A stretch of DNA of 64,000 nt, taken from NCBI GenBank assembly GCA_964016885.1, contig OZ024742.1, positions 221,712,001-221,776,000 of the forward strand, written 5' to 3'. Made by a program: the position numbers and the translations under genes. Under the pieces are notes generated by a model that made no database searches, was not told the origin of the DNA, and saw only the letters and a program-made list of their open reading frames with translations. Positions 5,811 through 56,938 of the stretch are shown here, one piece after another; positions within the stretch are counted from its first letter, which is position 1, and each line of letters starts with the position of its first letter. The stretch is from Eledone cirrhosa. Taxonomy: Eukaryota.

Positions 5811-8213
5811 TACACGAAAAAGGAGTGTTCCGAGCTCGGTATTTGGATATCTTCTCTTTTGAGTTACGAAGTATCAAAACTATTTGATACGAATGGTTTG
5901 TGAAAAGCCATGCACTTGTTAACCTATCTTTTACACGTAGTGATGTACGATCTCTCTCTCTTGCTTTCAATAGTCCCAATAAAACGCATACACACTTTCA
6001 TTATCTGTACAGGCAATATTTATTAGAAGGCTGTTTGAGTGTGTATACATTTTTTTAGACACCCTGTATATTAATATTGTTGTTATTGTAAATATACACT
6101 CTAAAGATGGGAGTTAATAGTCTGGATAATTATAAAACTTGAAATAGTTTGTTGTGTTTTTCGGTCCCTAGAAGGATGGGACGGGGCTTAGGTTCATGTG
6201 TACTTCAGAGAAATACTTTCCATTAATGTGAAAGGGCTATGGGGATGGGTATCTAAATTAGATATAGTAAACTGAATCGTTACTTCAATAGATGTGTGTG
6301 TGGGAGGAGGACAAAGATGAAAAAAACGGGGTTCGGTTGAAGGGTCGATTGGTTTATTCTCTCGTTTGTTGTTTTGTGTGGAGAGTAACTCATTCAGTTT
6401 AGTGGGATTCATCATCAACATTATCACTATCAAAGTTATTACTATCCGCACCATCATCACCTGTCTCGGCAATGTGTTTTCTGAAGTTTGTATTTTGATA
6501 TCCCTTCGTCCATAAAGTACCAAGTGACGTTGAAGAGAGAGAACCTCTTCATGGTAGTTTGACCGACTAGAAATAACAGCCAAATTCTCTCAAATCAACT
6601 TCCAAAAGTCAAACATTGGTTTAGAAAAAGTTTTAAGATTTTCTTTACCATATTTTAAATGATTTTGAAAACGATAATTTTTAGTGATTTAGTAATATAA
6701 CTCACCTTTGCATTATTAAGCTGTGTTTGGAACTTAACTTAAAGGTTCTTACATAAAATTACGATGGCAGGGTTTTAGATTAATATAAACACGTTAACCC
6801 TTTCGTTACCATATGTCTAATTAAATTAGCCTATGATTTTTTTTTATTATTTTTAAAACAATAACAAATTTAGAGTGATTTAATAATATAATTTTCTGAC
6901 TCGTTATTAAGCTGGTGTTTGGAGCATAATTCAACAAAAGTTCTTACTTAAAATTATGATGGAAAGTATTCAGATAAATTTAAATTAAATAAACAGCGTT
7001 GTATCATAAAACCAGGGACAATTTACTATCAAACGGGGTAAGCCGAAATTTTCAGTGAGTTTTATAATATTTAAATAAAATGTGACTTTTCTTCGTGATT
7101 TCCTGCTTACAGCATGACTAATCATGTGTTTGCACCTGGAAAGTTCCTCTTCAAAGCACAAGCCTGAGCATGGCGTTTTGTGGAGGACCAGTAGTTAGTT
7201 AGCCTTGTATTTAAGTCTACACACCAAAGTTGTACAATAGAAAGGCAAAGGCCGATACAGCTTGGCACCAGGGCAACAATTTGTGGGGAGGGGGAGTCGA
7301 TTAAATCAAGCTAGTGTGTTACTGGTTCCTTAAGAATGATAGTCAAATCTAACCTAATAATTCTTCCCCCATCTTAATGATGAAATGACTTTAGTAAATC
7401 CCCTCAAATTCTTCATTCATGGACTTCAGTGTATTTCGTTATAAAATGGCCATGAAAGGGTGTGTACCGATATATCTACTATTACTACAGCCGTCACACA
7501 ATCGAGTATGACTTTGTAGTATGTAGACACAGACACCCTCCTGCCATGAGCGATGAACTGAGCCAGTACTTTACTGGTACTTTATCGACACCAGAAGGAA
7601 TAAAAGGCAAAGTGGACCTCGGCAAGATATAAACTCAGAACGCAGAGACAAGGGTCAAATATCCAACGTTCTGACGAATATTCCATAGCGACTACTTTAC
7701 CTTCGCATGCATGGTCCTATAACCCCCGAGAGAGTTGTAGGGGCACCGTATTGACATACGTCGTTTCTAGGGTATTTTAAAAAGATCTGACGGACCCCAT
7801 CTCTTCTCGAGGTCTGAATCCAGTGAAGGATAGAGGGTGAGAGAATGGAAGTGAGAAAGAATCGACCAGTATTTAACTGGTACATTCTTTTCGTCCTCAA
7901 ATTGATGAAAGGAAAAGTCGACCTCGGTGGGATTTGAACTGAAAGAGCAGAGAGCCGGAACGAATATCGCAAAGTATTCTATCCGACGTTCCAACGAATC
8001 TGCCAAATCGACCGCTTGGTGTTTTAATGGCTTTCATGGAGTGTGTGAAATCAGACCGCTTGTCAAAAGAAACATTTTCAAATCTATCATTTCTAATATT
8101 TAGCCTCCTACTACGCACGCGCGCGCACACAAACACATGCATACATACATACATACACACACACATGCATATTTACATACCGCCGACTGTCTTATACATG
8201 AATACATATATAT

Positions 8214-8950
8214 ATATATTAATAAATGGAAACTATATTTATAAAACCATAATTATTTTATTATATTTCAAGTGTAACTAAGGTAGTCTTGGTGCGCTTT
8301 CATCAGATAAAATACAAAATTTGTTTTATAAATATTGACATAACCGTGCAAAACAACCCTGACGGTTGAAAGTTCGCTGGATAGTGAAAAATTGTATTGA
8401 GGGTAATTCAAAGTTTTGTGTATGCAAATATGCAAATGAATGTCCGAAAAATCGAAAAAAACAACCGTTTATTTAAATTACACTGTTGGAAGAAGAGAGA
8501 AAATAAAATAAAATATTAATATATGCAGAAGTAGAGCGAAGAAAGAAGTTTATCCTAGGATGTGTTTTTCTCTCTCTTCTTCCAACAGTGTAATTTAAAT
8601 AAACGGTTGTTTTTTTCAATTTTTCGGACATTCATTTGCATATTCACACAGAACTTTGAATTACCCTCAATAACATTTTTCACTATCCAGCGAACTTTCA
8701 ACCGTCAGGCTTGTTTTCCACGGTTATGTCAATATTTATAAAACAAATTTTGTATTTTATCTGATGAAAGCGCACCAAGACTGCCTTGGTTGCCCTTGAA
8801 ATATATATAATAAAATAATTATGGTTTTATAACTATAGTTTCCATTTATTAATATATTGAATATTTACTCCAGTAGAGTGTCGAGTGCTTTATATCAGTT
8901 ATAAACTTTTAAGTTTGTTGGAATCCCAACAAATTAAATATAACTTCTAC
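8214..8950 (+). mobile_element. Non-coding fold-back PLE derivative: inverted pseudo-LTR arms with hammerhead ribozymes plus a 3' tail
   Basis: Arm about 8214-8503 is the reverse complement of about 8563-8855; tail 8856-8950 is homologous to the PLE tail at 13214-13300; (TA)n on both sides. Confidence 0.85.
8753..8817 (+). ncRNA. Minimal type-I hammerhead ribozyme
   Basis: TATTTTAT-CTGATGA-[AAGCGCACCAAG ACTGC CTTGGTTGCCCTT]-GAAA-TATATA-TA^ATAAAATA: 8-bp helix I, palindromic helix III. The mirror copy at about 8254-8315 (-) has lost 4 nt of helix III. Confidence 0.85.
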
Positions 8951-10267
8951 ATATATATATATATATATATATGTATTCATGTATAAGTACATAGATAATA
9001 TATAAATACATATATACAAACATGCATAAAGACATACGTATAAACACACATGCATACAAATTTACATTTCCATACACAAACGCTTAAAAACATATATACA
9101 ACCACACTCACACATAAATACGCACAGACAACCACACATACACTTGCATATATACAGAGACACACATACACATTGGAAATTTCAAAAAGCTATCTCAGCC
9201 TTTGAAGTTTTTATTTCTTAATCTACCCTTATTGTACCTTAACATCTACAATGTCAACGTGTGGAATTCGACTATTTATAGTCCGGTATTCTTTAGATTA
9301 TAGCAGGGCGTTTCACTCTAACGTATATTATAAAACGAACAGTAAAAAGACGTCAAGAGGTTTTATATATATATAAACAACATATATATGAGGACTACAG
9401 GAAATATAATTTGAACTAGCTTAGTTATTTTTATTTTCCGTTTATTTGTTTGTAAGGTGGTTTTGTTGGTGACACGACACAAAGCACCCAACCCATCCTA
9501 TAAAGTGATCATGTTAGTGAAATGACAAAAAGCACCCGGTCCACCCTGTAAGGTGGTTGTGCAGGTGACACGATGAAAAATTAGCCTGTCCAACCTGTTA
9601 TTTGATCGTTTTGGTGCCATGATGAAATGCACCCAGTCCACGCTGTAAATGTGACTGGCGTTAGGAAGGACATCCAGCAGTAGAAACGAAGCCAGAAACA
9701 GTTCTGTATGAACAAAACAAGGTTACCTGACCTGACTTGTCGCATAACGGAACCACTCGTCTAAACCCAAGCTAGCGCGGAAAATGGACGTTAAACGGTG
9801 ATGATGATGATATATAATTAAGTTGGTTTTCCTAAGAGAATCGGAAGGAAACCACATTTAAATAAGATACTCAATACATTGGTACAGAAGGTACACAAAT
9901 ATTTCATAGAGAAATAATTTCGACGGGACTAGAACTGAAGAAATCAGCTGTTTTCCGACCGGGAGAGGGATGGGCTCAACCACATCGTGTCCCCAATCTC
10001 CATCAAAAATTAAAGGCCCTTTATTTATTTTAACATATTTTAGGGATATTTCAATGACAACACCCGAAATGATATTACTAGTTGCTTTTTTTTCTTTTCT
10101 TTTTACAAAAAAATGTGCTTTAATTTAATCAGACAATAAATATATCTTGAAATTCAGACAGATGGCCATACAGAGATGTCACAACCATTTTTTCTTCCAA
10201 GACATTTACTGTTATAACACCAAGAAAATTATAAACAAATCTATTCAAATAACAACACTACAAATAT

Positions 10268-11404: not shown

Positions 11405-11544
11405 TGTTTATATACCAACACAAGAGCAAGAATGGGGGGCTCATTCTACTGACATGGCTTTAAAAATGAGGCTTGTTTGCAAACGAATCGAATATTATAA
11501 TTAATATTCGAAAAACTCAGATTACATGTATTTTTGTTTATAAA

Positions 11545-11589
11545 GCTCTGATGATTCCTGCCCAATGGTATGGATGAAACATTGTCAGC
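11545..11589 (+). ncRNA. Minimal type-I hammerhead ribozyme in a solo PLE pseudo-LTR end (about 11530-11637)
   Basis: GCT-CTGATGA-TTCCTGCCCAATGGTATGGAT-GAAA-CATTG-TC^AGC; downstream sequence is homologous to 21415-21505 and ends in (TA)n. Confidence 0.8.
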
Positions 11590-11633
11590 AAATAAAAATT
11601 GTATGAATATGTAGGCGTTCTTTGATTTCTTTT

Positions 11634-11691
<58 letters not shown>

Positions 11692-13008: not shown

Positions 13009-13343
13009 TATATATATTCACAATCTTGAGGTTGTAAGTTCGATTCCTGGACCGGGTGATGCGTTATGTCCTTGAGCAAGACACTTTATTTCACGTTGCT
13101 CCTTCTACCTGGAGTTGCGACCGATAGATAGTATTAGCAACTGGAAAGACCGATGAAAACATTGTTTCCTCGTTCCGATTTGACGAAATATATGTATATA
13201 TATATATATATATGGAAAGTTATATTTAAAATTGTTGGGTTACAACTAGTAAATATTTATAACTGATATAAAAGCACTCGACAAATATTTGGAGTATATT
13301 TACAATATTAAATAAATGGAAACTATATTTATAAAACCATATT

Positions 13344-13409
13344 TATTTCATTATATATATTTCGGGGATATCATATTAACAATATGCTATGCCTTCCTCA
13401 GACAAAATA
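13344..13409 (-). ncRNA. Minimal hammerhead ribozyme in the PLE 3' pseudo-LTR
   Basis: Reverse complement of the motif at 17391-17456. Confidence 0.75.
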
Positions 13410-14753
13410 CAATATAAATAGTTTTATAGATAAATAGATTCGACATACCGTAACAACACCGACTTGCATTTGAAGAGGTTGAATTGGCAGTGAAAAAATT
13501 TTACACAGAGAGAAAGAAAGAGAGAAAAAAGAAAGAAAGACAGAAAACGAAGAAAAGGAAGAAAAAGAAGAAATGCATGGAACAAAATAGAGAGATGGAA
13601 AGATAGATAAAGAGAAGAACTTCATGTAAAGAAACAGAAAGAGATATATATATATATAGAGAGAGAGGAAATAGAGATAGATACATATATATATAGAAAA
13701 TTAGGTAGTGGGAGGTCAGTTGAGTAAATGTATCAATGATACATTTATTTATTTATTTATTTATTTAGCTCTAGTATTAATGTAAGGGAGATATATATAG
13801 AGAGAAAAAATATAGAGAGAGAAAAAAATAGCGAGAGAAACAATTTAAAAATAGCCAGATATATTCGAGGCGTAAAAACCGTATGTTTTAATGTATTAGT
13901 ATTTATAAAACTTCCACTATATTGTAAATATCAGTATTCCTGAATGAGACAAGTATCCATAGTGTGTGAAAATTAATTATCTTATGTTTAGTTTTTTAAA
14001 AAAATTCATATGTTTATGTGATAGCTACAAACACCCATGTGAATCCACATGATCAACTCTGCAAACTCTAGGTTCACGGAAAACATTCTCAATGTGGTAT
14101 AAAAATTTGAGTATACATATATGTGTATTATTATTCCTGTCTTTACTCTACAAGATTATCTATCAAGCAGAAATAGAGAGCAGATTTCAATATATATCAG
14201 AAGCAAAACTAAAAAAAAAATAACAATAATAATAATAAGTAATAATAAAATAGAAAACTAAAAAAAAAAAATATTACGAAAGAATATTACATATTAAAAA
14301 TATTACATATTAAAAAATTTACATATTAAAGATATTAAAAATAAAAATAAAAAATATTAGAAAATACTACAATAATAAAAAATAAAAATAAACCACAAAG
14401 ATCAACCCTTCAAAATTAATTGACAATATATTGCCAAGTTCATTATAAGCATCAGAGTCGAAAAACAGACAAAGCCAAAAAATTATCTATCAAATCACAT
14501 CTAGCAAAGATCATTTCAAAAAGTTTATGATGCCCAATTTGGTCTACATGTGTTCTTATATTTAATATAGAAGTTTATCTAGTGTAAGGTTTATTCAAAA
14601 TATTTGGAGCATCAGCTTTTATGGTAGCTTAATTTTTCATGAGGAATGTTTAAATAAAAATAAAATAAAAATAAAAAATAAAAAAGAATAAAAAGAAGGA
14701 ATCAAAGATTTATCGGCTAGTTTCCCATATAAATATAAATCAAACTAAATATA

Positions 14754-15416
14754 CTACATTTTAAATTTAAATTTATATTTAAACGTTGAGTTTAATCTAT
14801 GTTTGCAACAACTGAATAAATTTGTCCGTAGATTAAGGGAATTTTTAGATTTTAGTATAAAGAATATCTCCTCTGCACAGAGGTCACATGTCTCAGAGGA
14901 TGAATTAAAAGGAATCCCTCTTGAGACTATATTCCAAGCCGTCGAATATCTAACGTTATCTAGCTTAAGTTGCCAGAGTACGCCTGATAGTGCCGTTGAA
15001 GATTTTTTGCTTGGATCTGTGAAAGAATTCTTGTGGTTATTATAGCGAAGTTTAAATTCCGTCGATGTGGAACCGACATAGTTAAAAGAATTAGAGTCAG
15101 TATTAACATTACAATTGTATACTATATTTTTAACTAAGCAGTTGTTATTTAACGGACATTTAGATCTATCTCTACAGTTACATTTGTTAACTTGTATATT
15201 ATTTATGCCATTATCACTAGGTTTTAAGTTCCTATTATTTATTCTATTAATATTTTGTGCTAAATTTTTGGTGGATGAGTAGGTTAATTTAATTGTATGC
15301 CTATTGAAAATTGAGTGATACCTATGTGTTCTAGGGAAGCGATTATCAAGAGCTTTGAAAAATAGTTTAGCGATGTGGGTTTTAATGTTTAGTGAGAAAG
15401 GGGGGGGGCAAACCAA
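14754..15416 (-). CDS. PLE linker plus GIY-YIG endonuclease (frameshifted continuation of the RT ORF)
   Basis: PPFSLN, CNCRDRSKCPL (CxCx5C), IVYNC..YVGST..FKLRYNNHKNSF, CDLCAEE, LNLR..CCKH. Confidence 0.9.
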   Translation of the reverse strand: MVCPPPFSLNIKTHIAKLFFKALDNRFPRTHRYHSIFNRHTIKLTYSSTKNLAQNINRINNRNLKPSDNGINNIQVNKCNCRDRSKCPLNNNCLVKNIVYNCNVNTDSNSFNYVGSTSTEFKLRYNNHKNSFTDPSKKSSTALSGVLWQLKLDNVRYSTAWNIVSRGIPFNSSSETCDLCAEEIFFILKSKNSLNLRTNLFSCCKHRLNSTFKYKFKFKM

Positions 15417-16477
15417 ATTATGTTCCTAGTTCTATTTCTTTTTTGGCCTTTGGAATTATTGTAATGCTTTCTATTATAGTTGTTAAGGTTGTTGCCGTAA
15501 TTAAAAAAGTTGTTACTTTGTTTAGTTTGTCTATCATTATCTATGTACACAATCTTATCAGCATATCCTGCTCTAGCTAATGCTTCATTATAGTATTGGG
15601 CCTTTTCGTCGAAAATCTTTCTATTCGACGAGATCCTAGAGATACGTTTTTGAACAGAGTTTACTATAGTGTTTTTGACAGATCTGGGGTGGTTAGAGTT
15701 AAAGTTGACATAGTTTAAGTTTTCATTCAACTTGTGAAAAGGATAGTGGAGACATGTGTTGAGATTTAATGTTATATCTAGGAAATTGACTATTCTATGG
15801 TTGTTCTCAATTTCTATTTTAAGATTAAAGTAATTAAAAAATTTTGTAATTTGTTTACATTTTCTATTTAGTTCAGGGTTATTATTATTAATAAGTAAAA
15901 GCATGTCATCTCTATATAAACCTCCGGTAGTACCAGGTATTTTCCTATGTAGCGAATTGATTAAAAATAAGCCCACAAGGTCAGTTACCTGAGCTGAGTC
16001 GGATGATCCCATAGTTATGTCAAAATTGCTATCTCTATCTGCTCTGGTCCATAGTTTGTCATTAAATTCTATCAAAGTTTTCCTAGCCGATAATATAATA
16101 TGCATTTCTTTGCTAGTTAGGTCAGTATGTTTGAATGCGTAATTTAGTGCCTTATTTAGTAGACTAGGGGTAATAGAAGAATAATAGTTAGCTATATCAA
16201 GTTGAATAAACCTATTATTATTGTTATATTTAATTTGCTTAAACCACTCAACAACCTCTCCAGTTCCCTTCCACAAGCTCAGGTTAGATACACAATCCAA
16301 GTTCTTAATTTGCTGTATCACCCTGTCAAGAATGTTTTTGCTTAATTTGCCCAGGTCCGATTTTGATGGTGCGATCAATCTAACTGGCAGGTCATTTTCA
16401 AAATTCCTCTTGTGATCCTTCATATTGATCTTCGGTTTCCTGGGCACGAAAGGTTGTGTTCTGTTCTCAATTTCCAA
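15389..16477 (-). CDS. PLE reverse transcriptase (5'-truncated)
   Basis: PVRLI, QLDIANYYSSI (motif A), MGSSDSAQVTDLVG (motif B), LYRDD (motif C), VNFLDITLNL, YVNFNSNHP thumb. Confidence 0.92.
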   Translation of the reverse strand: MEIENRTQPFVPRKPKINMKDHKRNFENDLPVRLIAPSKSDLGKLSKNILDRVIQQIKNLDCVSNLSLWKGTGEVVEWFKQIKYNNNNRFIQLDIANYYSSITPSLLNKALNYAFKHTDLTSKEMHIILSARKTLIEFNDKLWTRADRDSNFDITMGSSDSAQVTDLVGLFLINSLHRKIPGTTGGLYRDDMLLLINNNNPELNRKCKQITKFFNYFNLKIEIENNHRIVNFLDITLNLNTCLHYPFHKLNENLNYVNFNSNHPRSVKNTIVNSVQKRISRISSNRKIFDEKAQYYNEALARAGYADKIVYIDNDRQTKQSNNFFNYGNNLNNYNRKHYNNSKGQKRNRTRNIIWFAPPLSH

Positions 16478-17390
16478 CTCGTTAATATGTAAATTTTTTA
16501 ATATGTAATATTTTTAATATTCTTTCGTAATATTTTTTTTTTAGTTTTCTATTTTATTATTACTTATTATTATTATTGTTATTTTTTTTAGTTTTGTTTC
16601 TGATATATATTGAAATCTGCTCTCTATTTCTGCTTGATAGATAATCTTGTAGAGTAAAGACAGGAATAATAATACACATATATGTATATTCAAATTTTTA
16701 TACCACATTGAGAATGTTTTCCGTGAACTTAGAGTTTGCAGAGTTGATCATGTGGATTCACATGGGTGTTTGTAGCTATCACATAAACATATGAATTTTT
16801 TTAAAAAACTAAACATAAGATAATTAATTTTCACACACTATGGATACTTGTCTCATTCAGGAATACTGATATTTACAATATAGTGGAAGTTTTATAAATA
16901 CTAATACATTAAAACATAGGGTTTTTACGCCTCGAATATATCTGGCTATTTTTAAATTTTTTCTCTCGCTATTTTTTTCTCTCTCTATATTTTTTCTCTC
17001 TATATATATCTCCCTTACATTAATACTAGAGCTAAATAAATAAATAAATAAATAAATGTATCATTGATACATTTACTCAACTGACCTCCCACTACCTAAT
17101 TTTCTATATATATATGTATCTATCTCTATTTCCTCTCTCTCTCTATATATATATATCTCTTTCTGTTTCTTTACATGAAGTTCTTCTCTTTATCTATCTT
17201 TCCATCTCTCTATTTTGTTCCATGCATTTCTTCTTTTTCTTCCTTTTCTTCGTTTTCTGTCTTTCTTTCTTTTTTCTCTCTTTCTTTCTCTCTGAGTAAA
17301 ATTTTTTCACTGCCAATTCAACCTCTTCAAATGCAAGTCGGTGTTGTTACGGTATGTCGAATCTATTTATCTATAAAACTGTTTATATTG

Positions 17391-17456
17391 TATTTTGTCT
17401 GAGGAAGGCATAGCATATTGTTAATATGATATCCCCGAAATATATATAATGAAATA
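17391..17456 (+). ncRNA. Minimal hammerhead ribozyme in the inverted pseudo-LTR
   Basis: TATTTTGT-CTGAGGA-[AGGCATAG CATATT GTT AATATG ATATCCCC]-GAAA-TATATA-TA^ATGAAATA. Confidence 0.75.
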
Positions 17457-17493
17457 AATATGGTTTTATAAATATAGTTTCCATTTATTTAAT

Positions 17494-17630
<137 letters not shown>

Positions 17631-17631
17631 T

Positions 17632-17706
<75 letters not shown>

Positions 17707-17708
<2 letters not shown>

Positions 17709-18716
17709 TTTCTGAATTTGTTTAGCAAGATTCTTTATTGGAAAACGTGTGTTGAAACCGATATTGTTATGGTTATGCTTTGGGAGGGTCATGTTGCCAA
17801 TAAGAAACACACGCACCAGTTTCTTTCACTCCAATTTATTATAAATTAAATTTATAAATTTAAGAATTTATAAATTTCCGGTTGGTTGGTTCCATAACCG
17901 GACATTTGTTCATATATTGTCAAAGTTCTTTCGTCACACATTCTGTGACCTCTTCAGTGACTGGGGATTCTTTTCTTTGTTTTGTGCCTCTCCTTTGTTC
18001 TGTCCTACGCCATCTTGTTTTTGCGTGTGTTGTGTGCTTAGTTTATGCATGTGTTACATCCGGGTGTCTGTGTGTGTTTTTATTTGTTTATTTACATGTT
18101 ACTGGCTGGTTGTTTGTTCTATGTGAATGTGTGTTTTCATTTTGTCCTTAATTGTAAGTTGTGATGTTGCTAGTCCATTCATGTTTGATATTTAATTTGG
18201 TTGGAGTTCATTTATGTTTATTGCCTCTGTGATTTGTCTAAACATTGCGTCTTTTTATCACAGAGGCAATAAACATAAATGTTTCACAGAGGCAATAAAC
18301 ATAAATGAACTCCAACCAAAATTAAATAGAAAACATGAATGGAATAGCAACATCACAACTTATAATTAAGGACAAAATGAAAACACTCACACACATAGAA
18401 CAAACAACCAACCAGTAACATGTAAATAAACAAATAAAAACACACACAGACACCCGCATGTAACACATGCGCAAACTAAGCACACAACACACACAAAAAC
18501 AAGATGGCGTAGAACAGAACAAAAGAGAGGCACAAAACAAAGAAAAGAATCCCTAGTCACTGAAGAGGTCACAGAATGTGTGACGAAAGAACTTTGACAA
18601 TATATGAACAACCGTCCGGTTATGGAACCAACCAACCAACCGGAAATTTATAATAAATTGGAGTGAAAGAAACTGGTGCGTGTGTTTCTTATTGGCAACA
18701 TGACCCTCCCAAAGCA

Positions 18717-18720
<4 letters not shown>
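17707..18720 (-). mobile_element. Non-coding fold-back PLE-like element, second family, with HHR-like motif in each arm
   Basis: About 17775-18235 is the reverse complement of about 18285-18720; about 26-bp duplication near the apex; tail 17707-17770 on one side only; embedded in (TA)n. Confidence 0.85.
18556..18598 (+). ncRNA. Variant minimal hammerhead motif (mirror copy 17919-17961 -, further copy 25638-25680 +)
   Basis: GTCA-CTGAAGA-G-GTCACA GAATG TGTGAC-GAAA-GAAC-TT^TGAC; extra G before helix II; CUU triplet. Confidence 0.6.
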
Positions 18721-18922: not shown

Positions 18923-20014
18923 GTGGCTATGACTATATATATATATATATATGTATGCGTGTAGTTCAAGGTAAAAGGAAGACAAACACTAAAAACAATA
19001 ACGTAAAGTCTTATTTGTTGAGAAAGGTTTCAACGTATTGGACGTCAGTCTATCATCAGGGAAAAGAAGAAAGAGAGAAAAATACAAAGAAGTGAAGGTT
19101 GCGAAAGATTAGTGCACTGCAAGCAGTTCAATATATATATATATGGAGAGGAGGGGGGGGGGAGATATTATATGCTACTATTTAAGACTAGTAAGACCAT
19201 TATTCGACTTCGTAGTCCATACTTTAAGGAAATTGGAGTGTAGATATTATATAACAGATAGGCCCTATCTGTCTAATATATATTTATATATATATTTATT
19301 TACGTACGTATATCACGACACGCACCGTGTTATATTTTGACGGTATTGTATTAGCTCAATGTACGAGAACAGAGCCGTTATATGTAAAAGAAACCAAAGA
19401 ACGCTTACATACTCAAACAGTCTTTATTTGCTTACAATGTTTCATCCATGCCGTTGGGTAGGAATCATCAGAGCTTAATAAACACAGTGCTGAGTATAAG
19501 CCCTACCAAGCTTAGTCACACGAACAATCGGAATACAATAGAGGGTAAAGATAGGGAGATCAGAGATGGCAAATAAGGAGAGAGTACATGCTGGGGTTGT
19601 TAAGCACCAGTAAGAAGAAAAAGAGGAGGGCAACCGTGTGTACAATAAATAAATGACTGCACATCTCCCTCTCTCTTTCATTGTAGGGTCTCTCCGCCAC
19701 TGTCTTGTTTATGATTGCTAATGAGGGAAAAAGGAAAAACACAAACACAATCTTTCCAAAAATGTCAGATATAAAATAACCAGTTATAATAACTTCAAGA
19801 AAAGAGAAAGAAACGAAGTTTATTTCATTCTTTACCCATATTTATGCGAAATATTCCTTGGTGTGTAGTGAAGCCATTGATAGGCTAATACTACTGTCAA
19901 TATAGCAGAGGTTAAGTGGTTGACAGGTGGCAGGAACTAGATGAACAAGTTTTGGTCAACCCAGTGACAAGTGGCTAATTGAACTGACCAGGTCACTTGA
20001 ATATTCACTACACT

Positions 20015-20311
20015 ATGGATAAACCTAGCATCTCAAGAAAGGTCCTTCGCTCTCCGAACCTACGGCGGAAGAAAAATACTGTCCCTGTCGAACAACGTGT
20101 TACTTTAGAGAAAGTATTAGGATTAACCATTAGCTCAACGGCTGGACTAACATGTGACCCAAATACAGGAGCTATAGCATACCAAGCAGGCTGTGTTATC
20201 AATATCTTTTATCCACGTCGCAACAAGCAAACTCACATTTTCAATGCTTCCAAGAAAACCATTACTGCAGTTGCTTTTTCTGGAGATGGCAAGCATCTTG
20301 TTAGTGGAGAG
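20015..20311 (+). pseudogene. MAPKBP1: Intronless 5' fragment (99 codons) of MAPKBP1/WDR62-family WD40 gene
   Basis: MDKPSISRKVLRSPNLRRKK..RVTLEKVLGLT..GLTCDPNTGAIAYQAGCV..PRRNKQTHIFNASKKTITAVAFSGDGKHLVSGE aligns with the MAPKBP1/WDR62 N-terminus (VTLEKVLGIT..LACDP..AYPAGCV..KTITALAFSPDGKYLVTGE). Similarity stops after GE, and the next bases are AT, not a GT donor. Confidence 0.88.
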
Positions 20312-20486
20312 ATTGTTTACCCACGTGCTGTCCCGATCGCTGCCGCTTTTACCAGGAATTGCTTTTGACATGTTCGTGACTGGATTGTGTGTGGAGACTT
20401 TGGTTATATAAAGTCTGGAGCTGAAAATTGAACACATTGTGCTATACGATCTGGGATCTTAAACATATGGAGGTTTTTTTAATGTA
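20312..20486 (+). pseudogene. Decayed C-terminal half of a Neptune/Poseidon-type PLE GIY-YIG endonuclease
   Basis: VPIAAAF / LPG..DMFVTGL / ELKIEHIVLYDLGS*TYGG..N resembles the PLE pattern P(V/I)A.HF..PGH..D..V.GL....E...I..LGTL.P.GLN; frameshifts and stops present. Confidence 0.55.
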
Positions 20487-21505
20487 TATATCCAGCATGT
20501 AATTCTTGTTACTGGATGAGATGCTATGTTTTAGTGATAGTATAAATCCAACTATTTTTACTTTTGAACGATCTACATATGTGTATAATTTAGACTGATT
20601 GGTTATCTAATGACAATCCTATTTCTATATAACCCCTAGACTATCGAGACATATGTGGCCGATTGGTCTAGCCTATACAGTTAATATACATGTGTGGTAA
20701 CTCTTTGCCAGTTGGTTTTACAGTAACTAAAATAATATTGTGGGGCTTTTGCTGCAGTTCTATCTTATAGTAACCCCGCTTTGCTTGTGTATGGCTTGCT
20801 TTATTTGTGGTGCCTGTCTATATACTTGTTATACTCCGCTCTATCCTGTAATAACCCCACTTCGCTTGTGTATGGCTTGCATTTATGTTACCTGTCTATA
20901 TGCTTGTGGAACACCCATGGGCTACGTGGTTCAAGTACCTACCAGTATACCTTGTATATGTATACCATGAATGGGGATTTTAATTACTGTGGCCTTTCTA
21001 GATGTACCTTACGAACATATTAGTGCTTATATAACTATAAGTTACTGAGATCCTATTCAAGGGACCAGCGCTTAAATTCCTCTAGCTTTTTTATGTGCTT
21101 TTTTCTTTTTTCTTTTTTCACTTCTTTCCTTTTAAAAACTCTAAAAAAATCTTTTACCTTTTTTTCACTTTTTATCTTTTTATATTATCTTCCTTTTACT
21201 TGTTTGTATTTTTTGATTTTGTGTGCCGTCAATTGTATCTGCATCTTGTGAGATCTACTTGTGCCCTAGAATTTAGCTGTGGTGCTTAACAACCCCAGCA
21301 TGTACTCTCTCCTTATTCGCCATCTCCGATCTTCCTATCTTTACCCTCTATTGTATTCCTATTGTTAGTGTGACTAAGCTTGGTAGAGCTTATACTCAGC
21401 ACTGCGTTTATTAAGCTTTGATGATTCCTACCCAACGGTATGGATGAAACATTGTAAGCAAATAAAGACTGTTTGAGTATGTAAGCGTTCTTTGGTGTCT
21501 TTTAC

Positions 21506-21580
<75 letters not shown>

Positions 21581-23269
21581 CATACATACATACATACATA
21601 CATACACACATACATACATGATGATGGCTGCCCCCTCGTTATCGAGCATGGCCATTGCACGATATACCATTATTAATAATTATTAATTAATTCTATCGTG
21701 CGATGCCTGAGTGTGAAGATATTTTTTAAAGTGAAGAAAGACTGTGCACTGAGCCAATCCCACTCTCTGAGCGACAGTAGCTATAACTCGAAAAGAAGAA
21801 AAGATCAACATCATCGGTAACTACTGAGCCGTAGGTTTTATATTGGAGTTATCCCAGTTTCCTGAGTTGCCTTCTCCTAGAAGAATACCCTCCCAGTGGC
21901 TTAACCGCGCGGTACATGTGTATATACATGTTTACACACTTTCGGATGGCTGTTGACTCTTATCAGTTCTTCCGCCCTTTGTTAGGTTTTGTTTTTTGTC
22001 CTGCAGGGTGTCCAAAATCACCCTCCTCACCAAGTAAACTTGGTGGGATTGCCGGTTTAGTCGCCGACGACCCAACCATGTGACAGGTTGTACTGGGTTA
22101 CATGTTATCAGTAGCACTCAAGAGTGACCCGACATAACATACATACATACGAACATTATATGTATGTGTGTGTGTCAAAATCTCTTCGCACATACTGACC
22201 CTCGAATCACATCTGGTTGCTATTTCTCTTTATCTCGGTTGATGTCAGTGGTCTGGAGAGGCTGGCCAACTTGATGTGGAGTGAGATAAGTTTTTTCTTT
22301 GGTTATTCGACTCGGGTTCCTCAGAAGAAAAGCATCACTTCGACCTGCTCACGCAAGTAGCCAGATGTAGCGCTTAGCAAAATGCTACGTCCCTCTCGAC
22401 AAGGGCCCGACAGCAATTCTTCCATTGGCACTTCAACCACACAGAGTCATCTGCCACTTGATATAGACAACTCAGCTTCCTTGCCACTGCTTACTACTAT
22501 CTATGCTGGTGCGTACTGTCTGACTACAGCTTGTCAGTTTTTAAGGGAACATCGCTTCATATATATATAAAATAAATAAATAAATAATTGTTTTTACTTT
22601 TGGCAGAAGGCCAGCATTTATCCCAGTGTATTACTGGTACTTTATTTTATCGACCCCGTAAGGATGAAAGGCAAAGTTAACCACGGCGGGATTTGAACTC
22701 AGACCATAAAGGGCCGTAACTCTGTGCTGCAAAGCATGGCGTCCGACCCTCTACCGATACTGTCAATCCACCAATAAATAAATAAATAATAAAACCACTT
22801 CCGATCAGCAAGCCACATTGGACATTGGAATAGTTTCTTTATTTTCCTCGGAAGAAGAGATATTAATCTCGAAATATCAAGACATGATTAAATTAAGGTA
22901 AAAAAACAAACAAGTCCTGTTTCTTACGTTTTGATTTTTATCCGCCCAAACCTACATTGTTGTGGCTTTCAAACTTCGAATTCTTTATACCATATACAAT
23001 GCTTCAAGTAAACTACAAATTCCTTCTTTCCATATATATATATATATTTATTAAAATAACAGATTAAAGTTTAAGCAAAGAATCGCTGCTTTCACCCTTA
23101 ACGGGATCTTCTGAAACTAACAAAGTCGATCTGTAAACGCAGAAGTGGATATTTCAAAAAACGTTGCAACTGGAGGAAGACAGGAAGACGATACTTTGGT
23201 TCGTGGAAACGTTCCCTGGCAAAGAACGGGAAAAAACGAATATAATACGTCATTAATACCCTCAATTTA

Positions 23270-24205
23270 TTGAATGGGTTGTATTACCCGTATAGAAAGC
23301 CGAATAATACGCTTAATTACATAAGTAAGCATTCCAACCATCCTGCCAGCATAACCAAGAACCTGGTAGGAAACATTTCGTTGAGGCTTCCCCGTCTATC
23401 TACTAACGAGCATATTTTCAACGACCATTCCACTTATTACAATGAAGCTCTTGCTCGGAGTGGATTTGTCGATAAGGTAGCATATACAGAGTACGAAAAT
23501 AGACCTAGAAGAAATAGATCCCGTCGCATTTGTTGGTATAACCCACCATATAATATGGAGGTGGCCACACCATTAGCTAAGATCTTTCTTTCCCTTATTA
23601 CGAAGCATTTTCCCCCTACACATAAATATAGTAAAATTTTTAATAGAAATACTATTAAAATTTCTTACTCTACGACTCCTAACCTTGCACATAACATCAC
23701 AGCTTCAAATTTAGCTAAACTACCTAGCCGTAGGAACACGTGCAACCCTGTAGTTAGTACTAACTGTAATTGTAGGAATCGGGTTGAGTGCCCCCTATCC
23801 GGGAATTGCCTCTCTAGTAACATTGTCTACAAATGTAAGGTTGAAACACCCACGTCCCGTAGGGCCTACATAGGGTTAACCGCCAATAGATTCAAGCAGC
23901 GTCTTTACATGCATACCCATTCTTTTCGTTACCCTCTAAGAAGGAATATGACGTCACTTTCAGCTTATATCTGGAGTCTAAAAGACAACCACACCCAATA
24001 TAAGTTACACTGGGAGATCCTAGCTAGGGCTAGATCGTATAACGGAAATAAAAGACCATGTGACCTCTGCGCCGCTGAGGCACTGGAAATACTCTACGCC
24101 ACAGACCACATCTTAAACAAAAAATCTGAGGCAATTTCGGCTTGTAAACATAAATTGCACAAAACTTTCCTGTATTACAGCCCCACGTTATACCCTAACG
24201 GATAG
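23270..24205 (+). CDS. PLE RT thumb plus GIY-YIG endonuclease (truncated, uninterrupted)
   Basis: YISKHSNHP, ICWYNPPYN, CNCRNRVECPL, IVYKC..YIGLT..FKQRLYMH, CDLCAAE, LNKKSE..CKH. Confidence 0.92.
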   Translation: MNGLYYPYRKPNNTLNYISKHSNHPASITKNLVGNISLRLPRLSTNEHIFNDHSTYYNEALARSGFVDKVAYTEYENRPRRNRSRRICWYNPPYNMEVATPLAKIFLSLITKHFPPTHKYSKIFNRNTIKISYSTTPNLAHNITASNLAKLPSRRNTCNPVVSTNCNCRNRVECPLSGNCLSSNIVYKCKVETPTSRRAYIGLTANRFKQRLYMHTHSFRYPLRRNMTSLSAYIWSLKDNHTQYKLHWEILARARSYNGNKRPCDLCAAEALEILYATDHILNKKSEAISACKHKLHKTFLYYSPTLYPNG

Positions 24206-25143
24206 TACGATCTATACGTGGATATTTTACGACTTGATGTGGTAGCTAAGTATATGTTTTGTTTATACCATTAATTATTTGCATAGGTAAGTATATATTA
24301 CCTGTATGTTTTGTGAAGGTACGTATACCTTCTCGTACGTATATTTGATTGTATATGTTATGGCGTGTAATTTTATATTTTCTGCTACATATGGTTTGGT
24401 TATGTGTATACGGTTGTTTTGCGTCTGTGTGAGTATGCAGGTTCGTACGTATGTAGGGTGTGTGTATATGTGTACTTCATGTTTTGGTTGACTTACGTCT
24501 CCGAACATTTGTGTATTTACATGTAGGTATGTGTGTGCGCTTGTTATATACGTATTTATTTATTTATATACGTTTATTTAATTATTTATTTACTTGTATA
24601 CACGCATACACACACACACATATTTATATGTGCGTGGTTTTATATACCTATGGTAAGTGTTTTCGCGTATGCTTGTGTATGTATGTATTTGTATGCGTGT
24701 ATGTATTTATTTAATTTCTATTACTTCTGTATTGTATTTATTTACTTTGTTCTTAACTCTGAAGCGGAGATTCATTCGGTGTCCTAGTTAGAATTTTAGT
24801 CTACGACTTCTGCTATACCATTTACGTGGTTTTGTCTTTGCGTGCAATTGTTCTCTACGCTCCACATATGACGTATTATCTTCGTTTTTTTTTGTTCATT
24901 GCCAGAGAACGTCTCTATGAACCACCTAAGAGAACATTAGTCTACGACCTCTTTTATACCATAAACGTGGTTCTGTCTGCGCGTAATTGTTTTTCACCGC
25001 TCCTATTAATGACGTATTATATTCGTTTTTTCCCGTTCTTTGCCAGGGAACGTTTCCACGAACCAAAGTATCGTCTTCCTGTCTTCCTCCGGTTGCAATG
25101 TTTTTTGAAATATCCACTTCTGCGTTTACAGATCGACTTTGTT

Positions 25144-25194
25144 AGTTTCAGAAGATCCCGTTAAGGGTGAAAGCAGCGATTCTTTGCTTAAACT
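25144..25194 (+). ncRNA. Variant hammerhead motif (CAGAAGA core); mirror copy 23068-23118 (-)
   Basis: AGTTT-CAGAAGA-TCCC GTTAA GGGT-GAAA-GCA GCGATTCTT TGC-TT^AAACT; all three helices form but the core has U4 replaced by A. Confidence 0.55.
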
Positions 25195-25304
25195 TTAATC
25201 TGTTATTTTAATAAATATTTGCTCTACGGTTCTTATATATTTGATATATATTTATCCTTATCGAGCCCTCTTTGGATTTTAGTCTTCAAATTTATTATTA
25301 TTAC

Positions 25305-25929
<625 letters not shown>

Positions 25930-27655: not shown

Positions 27656-28627
27656 TGGTAGAGCGTTGGGCAATATGTTTTTCTGCATAGAGTTACGGTC
27701 CTTTACGATCTGAGTTCAAATCCCTCCGAGGTTAGCTTTGCTTTTCATCCTTACGGGGTCGATAAAATAAAGCACCAATAATGCACTGGGATAATTGCTG
27801 GCCTTGTGCCAAAAGAAGAAACAATTATTTCATTAACTTAAACTCTATTATCTTCAGCAGCAGCATCAACATCGTGTGTTTTCCTTGCTGGCATAGATAG
27901 GATGGGTTGTCACGGTCAGCGACTAGACTGCTCGTACGTTCCATTTATGATTGCTATATGATTGCCAACTTCCTAACAGAATGTACACATTATTGTCCTG
28001 TGGTCAGAAGTAGGCGTCAGAGTCATCTCGGTTGAGCTGACAGTTATCTATGAGAGCCGTGTAGATGAATAACAAGAGTACAAGTGAGCCCCTTCTTTTC
28101 ATACTCCTCTGTTTTGGCCTTTTTGAGTAAATATGAAAGAGAAAGTCACAGGTTAAGTTGGCAGAAGGTTCCAGTGCAATAGCAGTAAGGCGTAGGCTAC
28201 TTACCTGAAACATTCATTCGCACTCTTTCCACTAAGTTACTCTTTCTCTCTATCCCTGTCGGTGCAGTCCCTTGCGAATTTCTCGCATAGGCCTGGTGTA
28301 GATTTGCACCCGATCCATCTGCCCGATGCACATGTCCGCTTTGTATGGCCTTTGGAGGAAGGAGTGACCAGCAGTACGTTGTTCAGTATTATTACGAAAA
28401 GGTGTAGCAGAGAATTCCGCGTGAACTAACAGCTCGGGAGGAAACTGCTTACCTCGAAGATTCATTTGCCATCGTTCTTGTCAATGCTCTGTTTAGTTGG
28501 TATTTGTTGGTCTACAGTTACATGAATGGCGCACAAAGGGTTAATGTTTATTGGCAAGAAGTGCAACTGGGCTGGCTTGCCTCGCTTATATTATATTAAC
28601 TGGGTTGGCTGGCCTCGCTTATATTAT

Positions 28628-28827
28628 ATTAAAATAACAGATTAAAGTTTAAGCAAAGAATCGCTGCTTTCACCCTTACTAAACTAAAAAAAAAAACAAT
28701 CCGTGAACGCAGAAGTAAATATTTCGAAAAACTTTGCAACCGAAGGAAAACAGGAAGACGATACTTTGGTTCGTGAAGATGTTCTTTGGCAATGAACGGA
28801 AAATAGCGAACATAATTCGCCATCAAT
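28628..28827 (-). mobile_element. Solo diverged pseudo-LTR of the 23047-25305 PLE family with the HHR core deleted
   Basis: Homologous to 23050-23256, but the CGGGATCTTCTG segment is missing. Confidence 0.8.
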
Positions 28828-44551: not shown

Positions 44552-47500
44552 ACATCCACTGACTTATTACATCATCATCGTCAAAACAGTTCACATATAT
44601 ATTCAAATTACAGAGACATCACACACAAAAATGTTTACATAACGCTTTTGTTATAAAGGAATTCCATATTTATTCAGTTTTTGATTAACCTCTTTTATTC
44701 TTTTACCAGTTCCAGCCTATAGTCTGTAGCCATGCTGGAGCACCTTTTTAACCCTTTAGCATTTAAACCAGCCATATCCAGCCACAATTCTCTCACCTCT
44801 TTCTGTTCAAACTGGCTGTAACCAGCCACTCATACTGATGTTAAGGTATTGTTCTCAAAATAAATAATATCAAAATCTCATAGATTCAATATTGTATGAG
44901 ATATATATGTAAGGTAATGCCTTTACCATGAAAATATAGTAGTATATATAGAGTAATGTAAATGCTAAAAGGTTAAGGTGGTAGTGCTGGTACTATTGAA
45001 ATGCACTCAGTCTACTCTGTAAAGTGGTCATATTGGTGCTATGACAAAACGCACCCGGCCCATCTTGTAAGATAGTTGTACTTGTACCATAGCAAAAAGC
45101 ACCCAGTCTACTCTGTAAGGTGGTAGTGCTGGTGCCACGAAAAAAGCTCCCAGTACATGCTGGTTGGTGTTAGGAAGAACAACTAGCTTTAGAAAACCAA
45201 GCCTGAAAATGGGTGAGCAAGACGTGGTCACCTGACCTGTCTGGCGTCGTAACATAATTGTCCATTTAACCCATGCAAGTGTGGAAAATGGATAGTGATG
45301 ATGATGGGATGGGAATCTTTCAATTGCAATCTGTCAGTCTCTCTTGTAAAATCTACTTGGTTCTTTCCATCCATATATTTTTGCTGAGAGATTTCAGTGT
45401 AAAGAAGCTGCTGTAGAGGAAGGCTTGGCCAGAGTGGGTGAAAGCTGATCTCAAAATGTTGATACCTCAAAGGGGAAATGACAAAGGAATGCAATGAGTG
45501 GAGGATGACTGTGTTGGAAGATCCCCCCCCCCCCCAAAAAAAAAAAGAACTGTTCAACCCATGCAAGCATTGAAAAACTGACAAAACAATGATGATGTTC
45601 ATAATGATGGCAATTGTGATGGTGGCAGTGGTGGTGATGATTTTAACCCTTCAACTGATATACTTTAGGGGTTATAAACCCTAAGGTGAACATAATTGGT
45701 TTTGACATCTGAGTTTGATTCCCACAGACACTTCTGTCAACTCTTTTTTTTCCAGCTGCAAGGCTTTATTTAGCCTAACTCATTTAACTATTATATAGTT
45801 AAATATTTAAACATGTACTGTAGCCACTTTAATAACCTAACATACTTTCAAAATCTGAAATATCCTAATTTTGACCTAGTTGAACCTCTTTTAGCTTCAA
45901 TGTATATATAACCAGCAATCATTCTATTGAGAATATAACATTGAAAGATATCACAGATTGTTTTATTGTAATTAAATGTTAAGATAATTATATAAACTAG
46001 GATTTCTTTCAAGACACTGACTAATATGTGTGTATGTGCATATGCATACGTTTATATGTATGAGTATATAAATATAAACGTGCAAACACATTTACAAAAA
46101 TACACACTCAGACAAACATTCACACAAACACAGCATAACAAATGGAAAGCCAGCCGCTATTTTGCTATACTTTTTTCACCACCCCTTCCTTCCCTTTACA
46201 CACATACATTCACACAGGCAGCAGACGCAAAGGGAGAGAATTAGTATGAGGTAGTCAAACTACTCTCTCTTTACGTGTTGTGACAGAATCACAGAAATTT
46301 ATATAGTGTTAATTAGCCTTGTTAACAAACCTGATTAAGTTCTCTATATCTAGCCAACTTCTATAGATGGTGAATTGGTAGTGTGTTGGTAGATTGGTAG
46401 AATGGTAGTAAAGTATTGGTAGAGTGGACGTAGATTAGTAGAATGGTGGTAGTATATTGGTAGATTGATAGAGTGGTCGTAGTGTGTTGGTAAATAGGTA
46501 GAGTGGTGGAAGAGTGGTCGTAGATTGTTTAAGTGGTGGGTGGTAGTGTATCGATAGAGCAGTGGTAGTGTGCCAGTAGAGTGGCTAGAGTCGTGGTAGA
46601 TCATTTGAATGGTAGTATGTGTTCCAGTAGAATGTAGAGTGGTAGTAGTGTGTTGGTAGATTAGTAGAATTGTTTGAGGAGTAGTAAAACGGCAGAGAAA
46701 ATATATATCAATATGAAAAATTTGTAATTCCCAGTAATAATCCTACAAGGGAAATAACTCCTGCTTAAGGATGTGTGTGTTCAGTATAATCGCAGTTTGT
46801 AACCTGGTCACAATTCCAATATATTACAATGGAACTTAGTAACGGATCGCAAAAGAATGCACCCTCCTCAAAAAAAAAAAAAGATGATAAATGTAAAGTA
46901 AATTTCACAATTTTTGTGATTTGAATAACTAAAATGTCTTCCACATTGTAACACTTTTAAAAAAATGATAATGTAAAATGAGTCGTTTGATTGAGACTTT
47001 ATTGAAAATAATTCATTCGCTCTTTCCCTCAATATAGATATTGCAAGGAAGGTGGGGCAGTCACTGGATCCGTAGCCAAACGGAATAAACTACGGAAATA
47101 GTGTGATTTATCTATAAACTTCAGTTTCCAGGAAATGGCATTCATGACATACGGAGAGGGAGTGCATTACCAACGAGATTGTCTTTGTTGGCGGCATGCT
47201 GTACTGAAATATCAGGTAATGCTGGGCTATTCCCGCACCGTAACCTTGCTATCACCCGACCTTACTGAAGTATCATGTGATGCTGGTGAGGGCTCATAGC
47301 TATTCCGACACCTTAGCCTTACTATCAAACGGCCTTACTGAAGTGTAAAGGGATATTTGTGACTGTGTTTGGCACTCCGGCATCTTAACTTCTATATCAG
47401 GCGACTTTTCTGAAATATCAAGTGATATTGAGGAGGGTGCTTGGTTATTCCAGCGCCTTGGTCTCGGATTGACTCGTGGTAATGTCGTGTCATGGCTTTT

Positions 47501-51046: not shown

Positions 51047-51325
51047 TGATATGAGAAAGGTCATGATTATCTATCATTGGTTGAATATTCCATCTACGAA
51101 TGCTATACTTATAGATGTGGCAGTAGTTACCTTACTAAACTGGGTGGCCCTGGCAATTGACTTTGCAAGTTCTTCCACCCAATGTCTTGTGTGTTTCACC
51201 TCTGGCAAAGTCAATGGCTAGGGCCACCCAGTTTAGTAAGGCAACTACTGCAACATCTATATGTGTGTGACATTTGTAGATGGAATATTCAGCTAATGAT
51301 AGATTATCATCACCCTTTCTCATAC
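51047..51325. repeat. Imperfect inverted repeat, arms about 120 bp, loop about 35 bp
   Basis: ATGAGAAAGG..CCTTACTAAACTGGGTGGCCCT..TTGACTTTGC versus GCAAAGTCAA..AGGGCCACCCAGTTTAGTAAGG..CCTTTCTCAT. Confidence 0.85.
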
Positions 51326-55439: not shown

Positions 55440-55771
55440 AATGAAATGAAATGAAATGAAATTATTGTGTAAAGTGCTCAGGTGCACTACAACTCGTCAA
55501 TATAGTACATAGAATAATACACAAATGTCAGGGAAGTACATGTGTGTATGTGTTAGCTGTAGTGTTGGCGGATCTCAGGAAGCATGGAGGCCTTAAAGGA
55601 TGCAGTGTCTCGACAGCTAACAACTGATGCAGGTAGTTTGTTCCATACTTCAGCAACACTGAGCGTGAAAAAATGTTTCCGAAAGTCATGGGAACTGTGC
55701 TGTTTTCTTACTTTGTGGGCATGTCCACGTGTGTTAGACACTAGACTGTAGGTGTATAGTTGTATTGACAC
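55440..55771 (-). mobile_element. CR1-like LINE 3' end with (TTTCA)n tail (shorter relative at about 53515-53730)
   Basis: TRGHAHKVRKQ..RKHFFTLSVAEVWNKLP..VV....ASFK. Confidence 0.8.
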
Positions 55772-55811
55772 TAGTATTTAGTCTTCTTTAGGGTACTACA
55801 ACTTCTCCAGT

Positions 55812-56326
55812 TGCCATGATAAAATGCACCCAGTCCACACTGTAAAGTGGTAGTGCTGGTGCCATGATAAAATGCACCCAGTCCACACTGTAAAGTGGTA
55901 GTGCTTGTGCCATCATAAAATGCACCCAGTCCATACTGTAAAGTGGTAGTGCTGGTGCCATGATAAAATGCACCCAGTCCACACTGTAAAGTGGTAGTGC
56001 TTGTGCCATCATAAAATGCACCCAGTCCATACTGTAAAGTGGTAGTGCTGGTGCCATGATAAAATGCACCCAGTCCATACTGTAAAGTGGTAGTGCTGGT
56101 GCATGATAAAATGCACCCAGTCCATACTATAAAGTGGTAGTGCTGGTGCCATGATAAAATGCACCCAGTCCATACTGTAAAGTGGTAGTGCTGGTGCCAT
56201 GATAAAATGCACCCAGTCCACTCTGTAAAGTGGTAGTGCTGGTGCCATGATAAAATGCACCCAATCCACTCTGTAAAGTGGTAGTGCTGGTGCCATGATA
56301 AAATGCACCCAGTACACTCTGTAAAG
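55812..56326 (+). repeat. 48-bp tandem repeat, about 11 copies, then degenerate copies to about 56700
   Basis: Unit GTGCCATGATAAAATGCACCCAGTCCA(C/T)ACTGTAAAGTGGTAGTGCTG; the same motif occurs dispersed (e.g. 9612-9660, 45000-45150). Confidence 0.92.
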
Positions 56327-56938
56327 TTATTGACAATTGAATAGAGACAATATAGGGTAAAGAAGACTATTTAGTATTGTCAAGGACGTAACAACTCTGT
56401 AGTGTTGGTGCCATGATAAAATGCACCCAGTACACTTTACAAAGGGGTTGGGGAATGAGTGTAGACAATGTAGGGTAGAGAGAATTCTTTGGTCTTGTTG
56501 AGGACAAGGCAACTTCATTGTTTGTGCCATGATAGAATACACCCAGTACACTCTGTAAAATGTTAGTGCTGGTATACTCCCCTCCCCTAAAAAATGGACT
56601 CTGTACACTCGGTAAACTGGTAGTACTGATGCCATGATAAAATGCACTGAGTACATTCTGTATACTGGTAGTGCTTATACCAAGAGAAGCTACCCAGTGC
56701 ACTCACTTAAGAGCATCTGGCTGTAGAAACCACGACAATATAAAAGGTAGAATGGGGGTGGTATATGATGATGATGATGATGACGACGACGACGACGATG
56801 GCAGCAGCGGCGAAGACGAAGAAGAAGAAGAAGAAGAAGAAGATGGTGATGATGATATGGTGTAATAGTATGTAAGCTATCTGTTTTACCTTCTATTACC
56901 AAATTAAATAAATAATAATCTCTAATGATTTTTTATAG

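Follow-up and report, generated by a model that had tools for sequence, protein, structure and literature searches.

A hammerhead ribozyme palindrome in Eledone cirrhosa read as a truncated fold-back insertion of a Hydra-type Penelope-like element

Inverted copies and hammerhead ribozymes in Penelope-like elements

Penelope-like elements (PLEs) are typically found as a main copy with an inverted 5′-truncated copy, a tail and a (TA)n target (PMC8557442). Within them, the Hydra clade inserts in (TA)n and carries hammerhead ribozymes (HHRs), and it includes an octopus family as well as an entry with an inverted 5′-truncated copy (PMC8557442). Pairs of HHRs 100–700 bp apart on opposite strands were described in Schistosoma, within an account that links most dispersed motifs to truncated PLEs, and high HHR variability with covariation within one genome has already been reported for PLEs (PMC4209133). 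Palindromes occur at inverted junctions and have been interpreted as the result of self-priming (PMC3846280). In the anole element Poseidon, the tail corresponds to the stretch between two reverse transcriptase (RT) start sites, both target strands are cut and a dimer is predicted, while the HHR requires protein for cleavage and is dispensable for insertion in vitro (PMC11167929). The formation of PLE inverted repeats is stated as open in two of these sources (PMC8557442, PMC11167929).

Here we analysed a window of 64,000 nt from Eledone cirrhosa (assembly GCA_964016885.1, contig OZ024742.1, positions 221,712,001–221,776,000; coordinates below are those of the window), in which a palindrome at 8214–8950 carries two HHR cores. 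We consider it probable that this palindrome is a dead 5′-truncated fold-back insertion of a Hydra-type PLE, whose family is a sister to that of the coding PLE at 13.2–17.5 kb, and it most likely belongs to the PLE shape already described rather than representing a new kind of ribozyme element.

The closest described systems are Hydra-clade PLEs with a C-terminal endonuclease (EN+), such as Penelope-13_HM and Hydra-1_Obim (PMC8557442), whose motifs are recognizable by eye in the neighbouring coding PLE, whereas the palindrome holds no coding sequence. Hydra-1_Obim is a distinct family, the HHR listed for it having other helices, and four motifs taken from the window had no match in the supplement of the same source. 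Like the minimal and near-minimal PLE HHRs of PMC4209133, the ribozyme is of type I, with a long variable helix II and a tiny palindromic helix III that implies dimer folding; opposite-strand pairing at a comparable distance (455 nt from core to core) and many HHR families per genome with covariation are further points of likeness. Unlike those HHRs, the palindrome has a long, AU-rich helix I of 8 bp, and at the base of its helix II an A-U pair replaces G10.1-C11.1, which is otherwise highly conserved. Non-LTR retrozymes (10.64898/2026.07.22.740005) are likewise non-coding, bear type-I HHRs and are related to PLE pLTRs, but theirs is a head-to-tail tandem arrangement with consecutive HHRs, and the palindrome is a single head-to-head pair with a PLE tail. 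With Poseidon PAc of the green anole (PMC11167929) the locus has in common two 3′ termini that define the tail, an AT-rich target and a far-end stem-loop with an AC-rich side, the last as a resemblance only. The PAc ORF starts inside the HHR, however; the palindrome has a longer tail and lacks an ORF behind its HHR.

Anatomy of the palindrome and its likeness to the coding neighbour

In a self-alignment of the window, the inverted arms (8222–8506 and 8565–8849, about 285 nt each) were 95.0% identical (267 matches, 14 mismatches and 2 gaps), with the inverted match reaching out to 8214/8857. The two type-I HHR cores face outward, at 8761 on the + strand and at 8306 on the − strand. Across all six frames of 8214–8950 the longest stop-free stretch is 66 codons, and a tblastn search of the window with 10 PLE proteins gave no matches in this interval. 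The first-pass annotation, which had described inverted arms of about 290 bp, outward-pointing HHRs and the absence of an ORF, is confirmed in these respects.

From left to right, the locus consists of a (TA)n target remnant (8206–8219), an inverted copy of the PLE 3′ end that has no tail (8220–8506, − strand) and whose short 3′ terminus abuts the (TA)n, an unpaired spacer of ~58 nt (8507–8564), the main copy of the PLE 3′ end on the + strand (8565–8857), 5′-truncated ~197 nt upstream of the HHR core, a 93-nt tail (8858–8950, + strand) and a second (TA)n target remnant (8951–8972). The tail belongs to the + copy only, is homologous to PLE 13214–13300 and terminates in a stem-loop whose 3′ side is AC-rich. 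The spacer, pyrimidine-rich on the − strand, probably continues the inverted copy in the 5′ direction, and it contains a 10-nt palindrome (8552–8561) near the presumed head-to-head junction. The locus has the hallmarks of EN+ PLEs: an inverted 5′-truncated copy joined head-to-head to a main copy; an extension at one end, although its 93 nt exceed the published 30–40 bp; and a type-I HHR in the terminal repeat, with core and three helices in the right arm and decayed in the left. It is also set in (TA)n on both sides, the target of the Hydra clade.

The right-arm HHR (8753–8817, + strand) has the motif, fold and topology described in PMC4209133. Its helix I pairs 8753–8760 with 8810–8817 over 8 bp; the core CUGAUGA (8761–8767) is followed by an 11-bp helix II (8768–8797) and by GAAA (8798–8801); helix III has 2 bp and a palindromic 4-nt loop of the dimer type, and cleavage is predicted after 8809. 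The fold as drawn has a free energy of −8.1 kcal/mol, compared with a minimum of −11.8 kcal/mol. In the left-arm HHR (8254–8314, − strand) the core is intact, but helix II fails to fold and helix III carries a 4-nt deletion. Rfam at gathering cut-offs returned no HHR hits across the window, and none of 41 hits by E-value was an HHR, the top ones being miRNA models that matched the hairpin below their own cut-offs; the putative HHR assignment is based on motif and topology.

Similarity to the coding PLE is strong in the tail (8858–8950), where the alignment to the PLE end scored 89 (shuffles 21.5 ± 3.9; 0/300 as high). It continues weakly upstream for ~90 nt, to ~8666 (score 37; shuffles 20.8 ± 3.8; 2/300), and is absent farther upstream, with a score of 27 versus 30.6 in shuffles. 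The palindrome and PLE 13214–17499 have about 285 nt in common, and the earlier figure of about 200 nt was too short. Helix II had been called completely different from that of the PLE, which applies to its distal part, where local similarity was not found (score 6 versus 8.1 in shuffles), but not to its base, which in both reads A-R-G-C...C-C-Y-Y with an unpaired C. That it nevertheless still pairs is borne out in the right arm (−10.1 kcal/mol, z −2.3, 5/200 shuffles) but not in the left (−1.5 kcal/mol, z −0.2, 71/200), and the PLE helix II folds no better than shuffles (−4.9 kcal/mol, z −0.9, 36/200). Helix I, described as varying while keeping its pairing, does have the letters quoted; two of its pairs, however, differ through a change on one side that makes a G.U wobble, and neither change is compensatory. 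Since only the right helix II beats shuffles and the helix I changes are non-compensatory, the three HHRs of the window are thin evidence of selection. Selection on HHR structure, also proposed at first pass, appears plausible across families in view of the helix II variants in reads and has already been described for PLE HHRs (PMC4209133); the left HHR of the palindrome has decayed.

Fold-back neighbours in the window and related copies in public data

The coding comparator (13214–17499, − strand) is itself a 5′-truncated Hydra-type PLE in the form of a fold-back with one tail. It encodes RT (15389–16513) and a GIY-YIG-type endonuclease (EN, 14754–15425) in two frames, broken by a frameshift, and ends before RWK and DKT as a result of 5′ truncation. 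By eye, its sequence shows the marks of the Hydra clade, namely a CxCX5C linker, the absence of CCHH, and CxxC and CxH flanking a conserved E and N; the assignment may be extended to the palindrome only through 3′-end homology. Protein relatives of its RT and EN (8 of 3479 and 3 of 87 candidates, respectively) are only 30–41% identical (best 41% and 40%), no close sister of either having turned up in the protein database, and the five inspected out of eight are full-length RT-EN proteins. Pfam returned nothing for the three PLE ORFs, and metagenome scans gave no match to a 27-nt motif and no confirmed RT among 144 candidate stretches.

Six short-range PLE-type inverted-arm elements lie in the window (8214–8950, 13214–17499, ~17707–18720, ~19310–21506, 23044–25304 and ~25352–25835), a set that omits SINE pairs, a microsatellite match and the palindromes at 51050–51324 and 53170–53408 from the window self-search. 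In all six, one arm abuts the microsatellite and the other adds ~55–95 nt before it, compared with the 30–40 bp given for PLE tails (PMC8557442, PMC11167929); four of these tails are confirmed by a homologous second copy and two are inferred from position. The tail sits on the shorter arm in some of the fold-backs. Three of the six are ORF-less, and the elements at 17.7–18.7 kb and 25.35–25.83 kb are one family cut at different points. With an arm identity of 95.0%, against 99.1, 96.1, 95.6, 99.1 and 98.1% in the other five, the palindrome at 8214–8950 is among the oldest of the set. The two coding elements have 1353 and 943 nt between the stop codon and the HHR that follows it; upstream of its HHR core, the palindrome extends for 197 nt in the main copy and for no more than 256 nt in the inverted one. 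The absence of an ORF is therefore expected from simple truncation and is uninformative.

The neighbouring elements have peculiarities of their own. The element at 17707–18720 has a short direct duplication at its centre, and in that at 25352–25835 the HHR is present only on the tail-less arm, the tailed arm stopping short of it. A second coding Hydra-type PLE (23044–25304) has 215-nt inverted arms with an HHR-like core, CAGAAGA, in both, and its ORF at 23246–24205 is 41% identical to the EN part of PLE 13214–17499; a further fragment lies at 28621–28827. Inside the inverted-arm HHR element at 19383–21506 (227-nt arms, 95.6%), an ORF (19988–20368) matches the first WD40 domain of WDR62/MABP1 (Pfam PF24780, E 1e-22), probably a trans-copied host-gene piece carried between PLE ends. 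PLEs are stacked end to end in common (TA)n tracts at 13.2–18.8 kb and 23.0–25.9 kb (gaps 13187–13213, 17500–17706 and 25305–25351), as if each (TA)n remnant had become the next target. At 11535–11635 an HHR of the type found in the 19.4-kb family stands alone and ends in (TA)n, with no inverted partner seen.

Four of nine public runs were aligned to 8500–8950 at 82% likeness, one of them (X7) being RAD-seq. On this 451-nt half element we found 5162 contigs in X1 and 25739 reads in X7, and two other organisms (X5, X6) gave 38 and 4 contigs covering the HHR and 3′ part only. Depths are not equivalent to copy numbers, and their gradient mixes truncation with divergence between sister families. 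Depth at 8500–8531 was 0 in all four runs, where the filter may hide records. In X7 it did not exceed 3.9 at 8532–8563, then rose through 7, 21, 31 and 75 to ~150 (8630–8660), dipped to ~40 at 8660–8690 and then climbed to ~2700 over the HHR core, with ~22000 immediately downstream. In X1, depth was 82–102 on the spacer (8532–8563) and 5000–29000 over the next 100 nt, a 50- to 290-fold difference that fits either the fixed 5′ end of a non-coding family or a variable pyrimidine tract. Ten of 13 joints listed are strand switches, each at its own position, and none of those listed falls at the 8214–8950 junction; four are in X1 contigs (sides of 33–54 nt) and six solely in RAD reads (sides of 21–46 nt, three under 30), which could be chimeras and for which orientation is not given.

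The same records bear on the ends and on helix II. Reads and contigs enter (TA)n behind 8847–8864, and 8935 is the end point of 261 out of 308 molecules, in keeping with two kinds of 3′ terminus. Next to the same GAAA stand at least two other types of helix II, one of which, near the type of the PLE, accounts for 12309 reads (X7). At 8773, roughly half of the X1 depth carries T for C, and one loose-end variant has A at the partner site; each being seen on separate evidence, they suggest a candidate C-G to U-A swap. At 8833 and 8710 the majority letter in reads is that of the left arm. Taken together, we read these data as a large group of related families, strongly 3′-biased, with fold-backs made anew at each insertion. 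A spacer depth of 0–102 against 5000–29000 on the adjacent arm (X1), with no listed joint at its junction, speaks against the palindrome as a large, fixed MITE-like family and leaves room for a few copies.

Origin of the inverted arms

Of the two options offered by the first-pass annotation, the heavily truncated sister family is the best reading of the palindrome, all six fold-backs being one-tailed and three of them without an ORF. The RT-endonuclease of the element would have cut a (TA)n site, a target preference seen here and in published elements, and reverse transcription would have started at each of two 3′ start points ~90 nt apart in the family; the two 3′ ends are observed here, and as RT start sites they have been demonstrated in vitro only for anole Poseidon. 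Two cDNAs would then have grown toward each other, stopped after ~350–390 nt and been joined head-to-head, leaving an inverted repeat that is tailed on a single side. Such twin priming, by analogy to L1, is a reading that we infer ourselves, self-priming fold-back being the published alternative; a title-level literature search for Penelope with twin priming or inverted copies retrieved nothing on PLE mechanism. The HHR frame and the 3′ end would be common between families because they are the cis-acting part, while helix II differs between families. The copy appears to have decayed since, its arms being 5% apart and the left HHR broken, and it most likely has no activity now, bar a possible role as a source of dsRNA on read-through.

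A different source is conceivable but unlikely, namely a pLTR-derived, SINE-like family that has no ORF of its own and is copied in trans by a Hydra-type RT through the common 3′ end, with the locus still an ordinary fold-back. Such a family would account for the restriction of coding-PLE similarity to the last ~285 nt and for the steep fall of X1 depth at the 5′ edge of the arm, and it has precedents in non-autonomous PLEs with common 3′ ends (Chlamys MRC1; PMC8557442), in trans-mobilisation between pLTRs (PMC3846280) and, in the same window, in the probable trans-copied WDR62/MABP1 fragment. However, the long low-complexity 3′ UTRs of coding families would not align between sisters anyway (27 versus 30.6), X7 depth falls gradually with no single step, and the spacer from 8533 onward is covered in both X1 and X7, so that some other copies hold sequence beyond the arm, in one or the other orientation. 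None of the pieces listed from reads and contigs reaches upstream of 8577 or runs into an ORF, which limits the evidence for a sister family; because no copy among them can be followed into an ORF, a non-autonomous source retains some probability.

The other option of the first-pass annotation, a retrozyme-like partner, fails the definition of such elements, there being one HHR per strand in inverted orientation and not a tandem head-to-tail array. Non-LTR retrozymes consist of tandem units with at least two consecutive HHRs, and LTR retrozymes have direct LTRs, a type-III HHR and a 4-bp target site duplication, whereas the repeats here are inverted and the HHR is of type I. We regard it as very improbable that the palindrome is a replicating unit of this kind, with a ribozyme-trimmed hairpin or circle as its RNA, despite its compactness, its two HHR cores without an ORF and a low but non-zero depth at 8532–8563 that would allow a few copies with the same junction. 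Against it stand the broken left HHR, the zero depth on 8500–8531 in all four runs, the lack of the tandem arrangement that defines non-LTR retrozymes (10.64898/2026.07.22.740005) and the position of the HHRs on opposite strands, which leaves one per transcript, and that one sequestered. In equilibrium folding of the + strand read-through RNA, the pair probabilities of the HHR that were tested ranged from 3e-49 to 6e-20, and forcing the HHR fold raised the energy from −463 to −389 kcal/mol, at a cost of 74 kcal/mol. The antisense arm precedes the sense HHR in this transcript and is made first, and helix III of the right HHR needs a second sense copy for the dimer fold. The proposed hairpin with self-trimmed ends is therefore not supported: transcription across the locus would yield a long dsRNA hairpin, but self-trimming does not follow from a single, buried sense HHR, and with one such HHR per strand at most one RNA end could be cut. 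An A-to-I imprint on the arms was considered and rejected (in the sense direction, G stands against A at 4 of the 14 differences; clustering not significant, P 0.11), and we take these differences as decay since two of them break helix II pairs of the left arm.

Immediately outside both (TA)n runs, the 15 nt at 8191–8205 are the exact reverse complement of 8973–8987; this inverted copy on the right is not a direct target duplication. Among the 2352 ordered pairs of 49 (AT)n runs in the window, 10 had flank matches of at least 12 nt, comprising the PLE's own arms, eight CA/GT microsatellite matches and 8191–8205/8973–8987, and none of the 49 runs taken singly had a palindromic flank longer than 4 nt. 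The mirrored flank would reflect either a perfectly palindromic target or an inverted duplication made at insertion. Fold-back repair could yield such a mirrored flank too, and the spacer is spanned by none of the records listed, as might be the case if the fold-back had arisen after insertion, through recombination at a palindromic AT-rich site or repair of a hairpin there, or were an assembly artefact. This we nonetheless hold to be scarcely credible. Between the arms there are 14 mismatched sites and 2 indels, and changes private to either arm, the left one having the majority letter at 8833 and 8710, argue against a sequencing fold-back; the tail lies between the right arm and the mirrored flank, with the same broken symmetry as in the other five elements.

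A more far-reaching combination, which we put forward as a long shot, would join an abundant non-coding Penelope partner family, having kept the Hydra RT recognition end and swapped helix II, with the one-tail rule and the mirrored flank. The one-tail rule and the flank would then record twin priming by a dimeric RT-endonuclease at a palindromic, cruciform-prone (TA)n, with both strands cut and one subunit at each start point. As a single locus, the palindrome is of small weight, being one of six alike insertions within ~18 kb that fit published PLE anatomy. A genome rich in short fold-backs nevertheless permits the counting of tail sides, junction microhomologies and target palindromes, and if the twin-priming and partner-family reading is true, such genomes would preserve a natural record from which the formation of PLE inverted repeats could be settled. 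The fold-backs would also be a plausible large source of dsRNA if transcribed.

Elsewhere in the window, 15 other ORFs included no clear host gene, with one LINE-type endonuclease and one weak proline-rich match, both below cut-off. The palindrome at 51050–51324 is 81% self-complementary and has one end near a (TA)n run, and that at 53170–53408 (72%) resembles two facing SINE copies. A 48-nt tandem repeat forms an array at 55719–56423, with dispersed relatives at 9431–9673 and 44944–45169.
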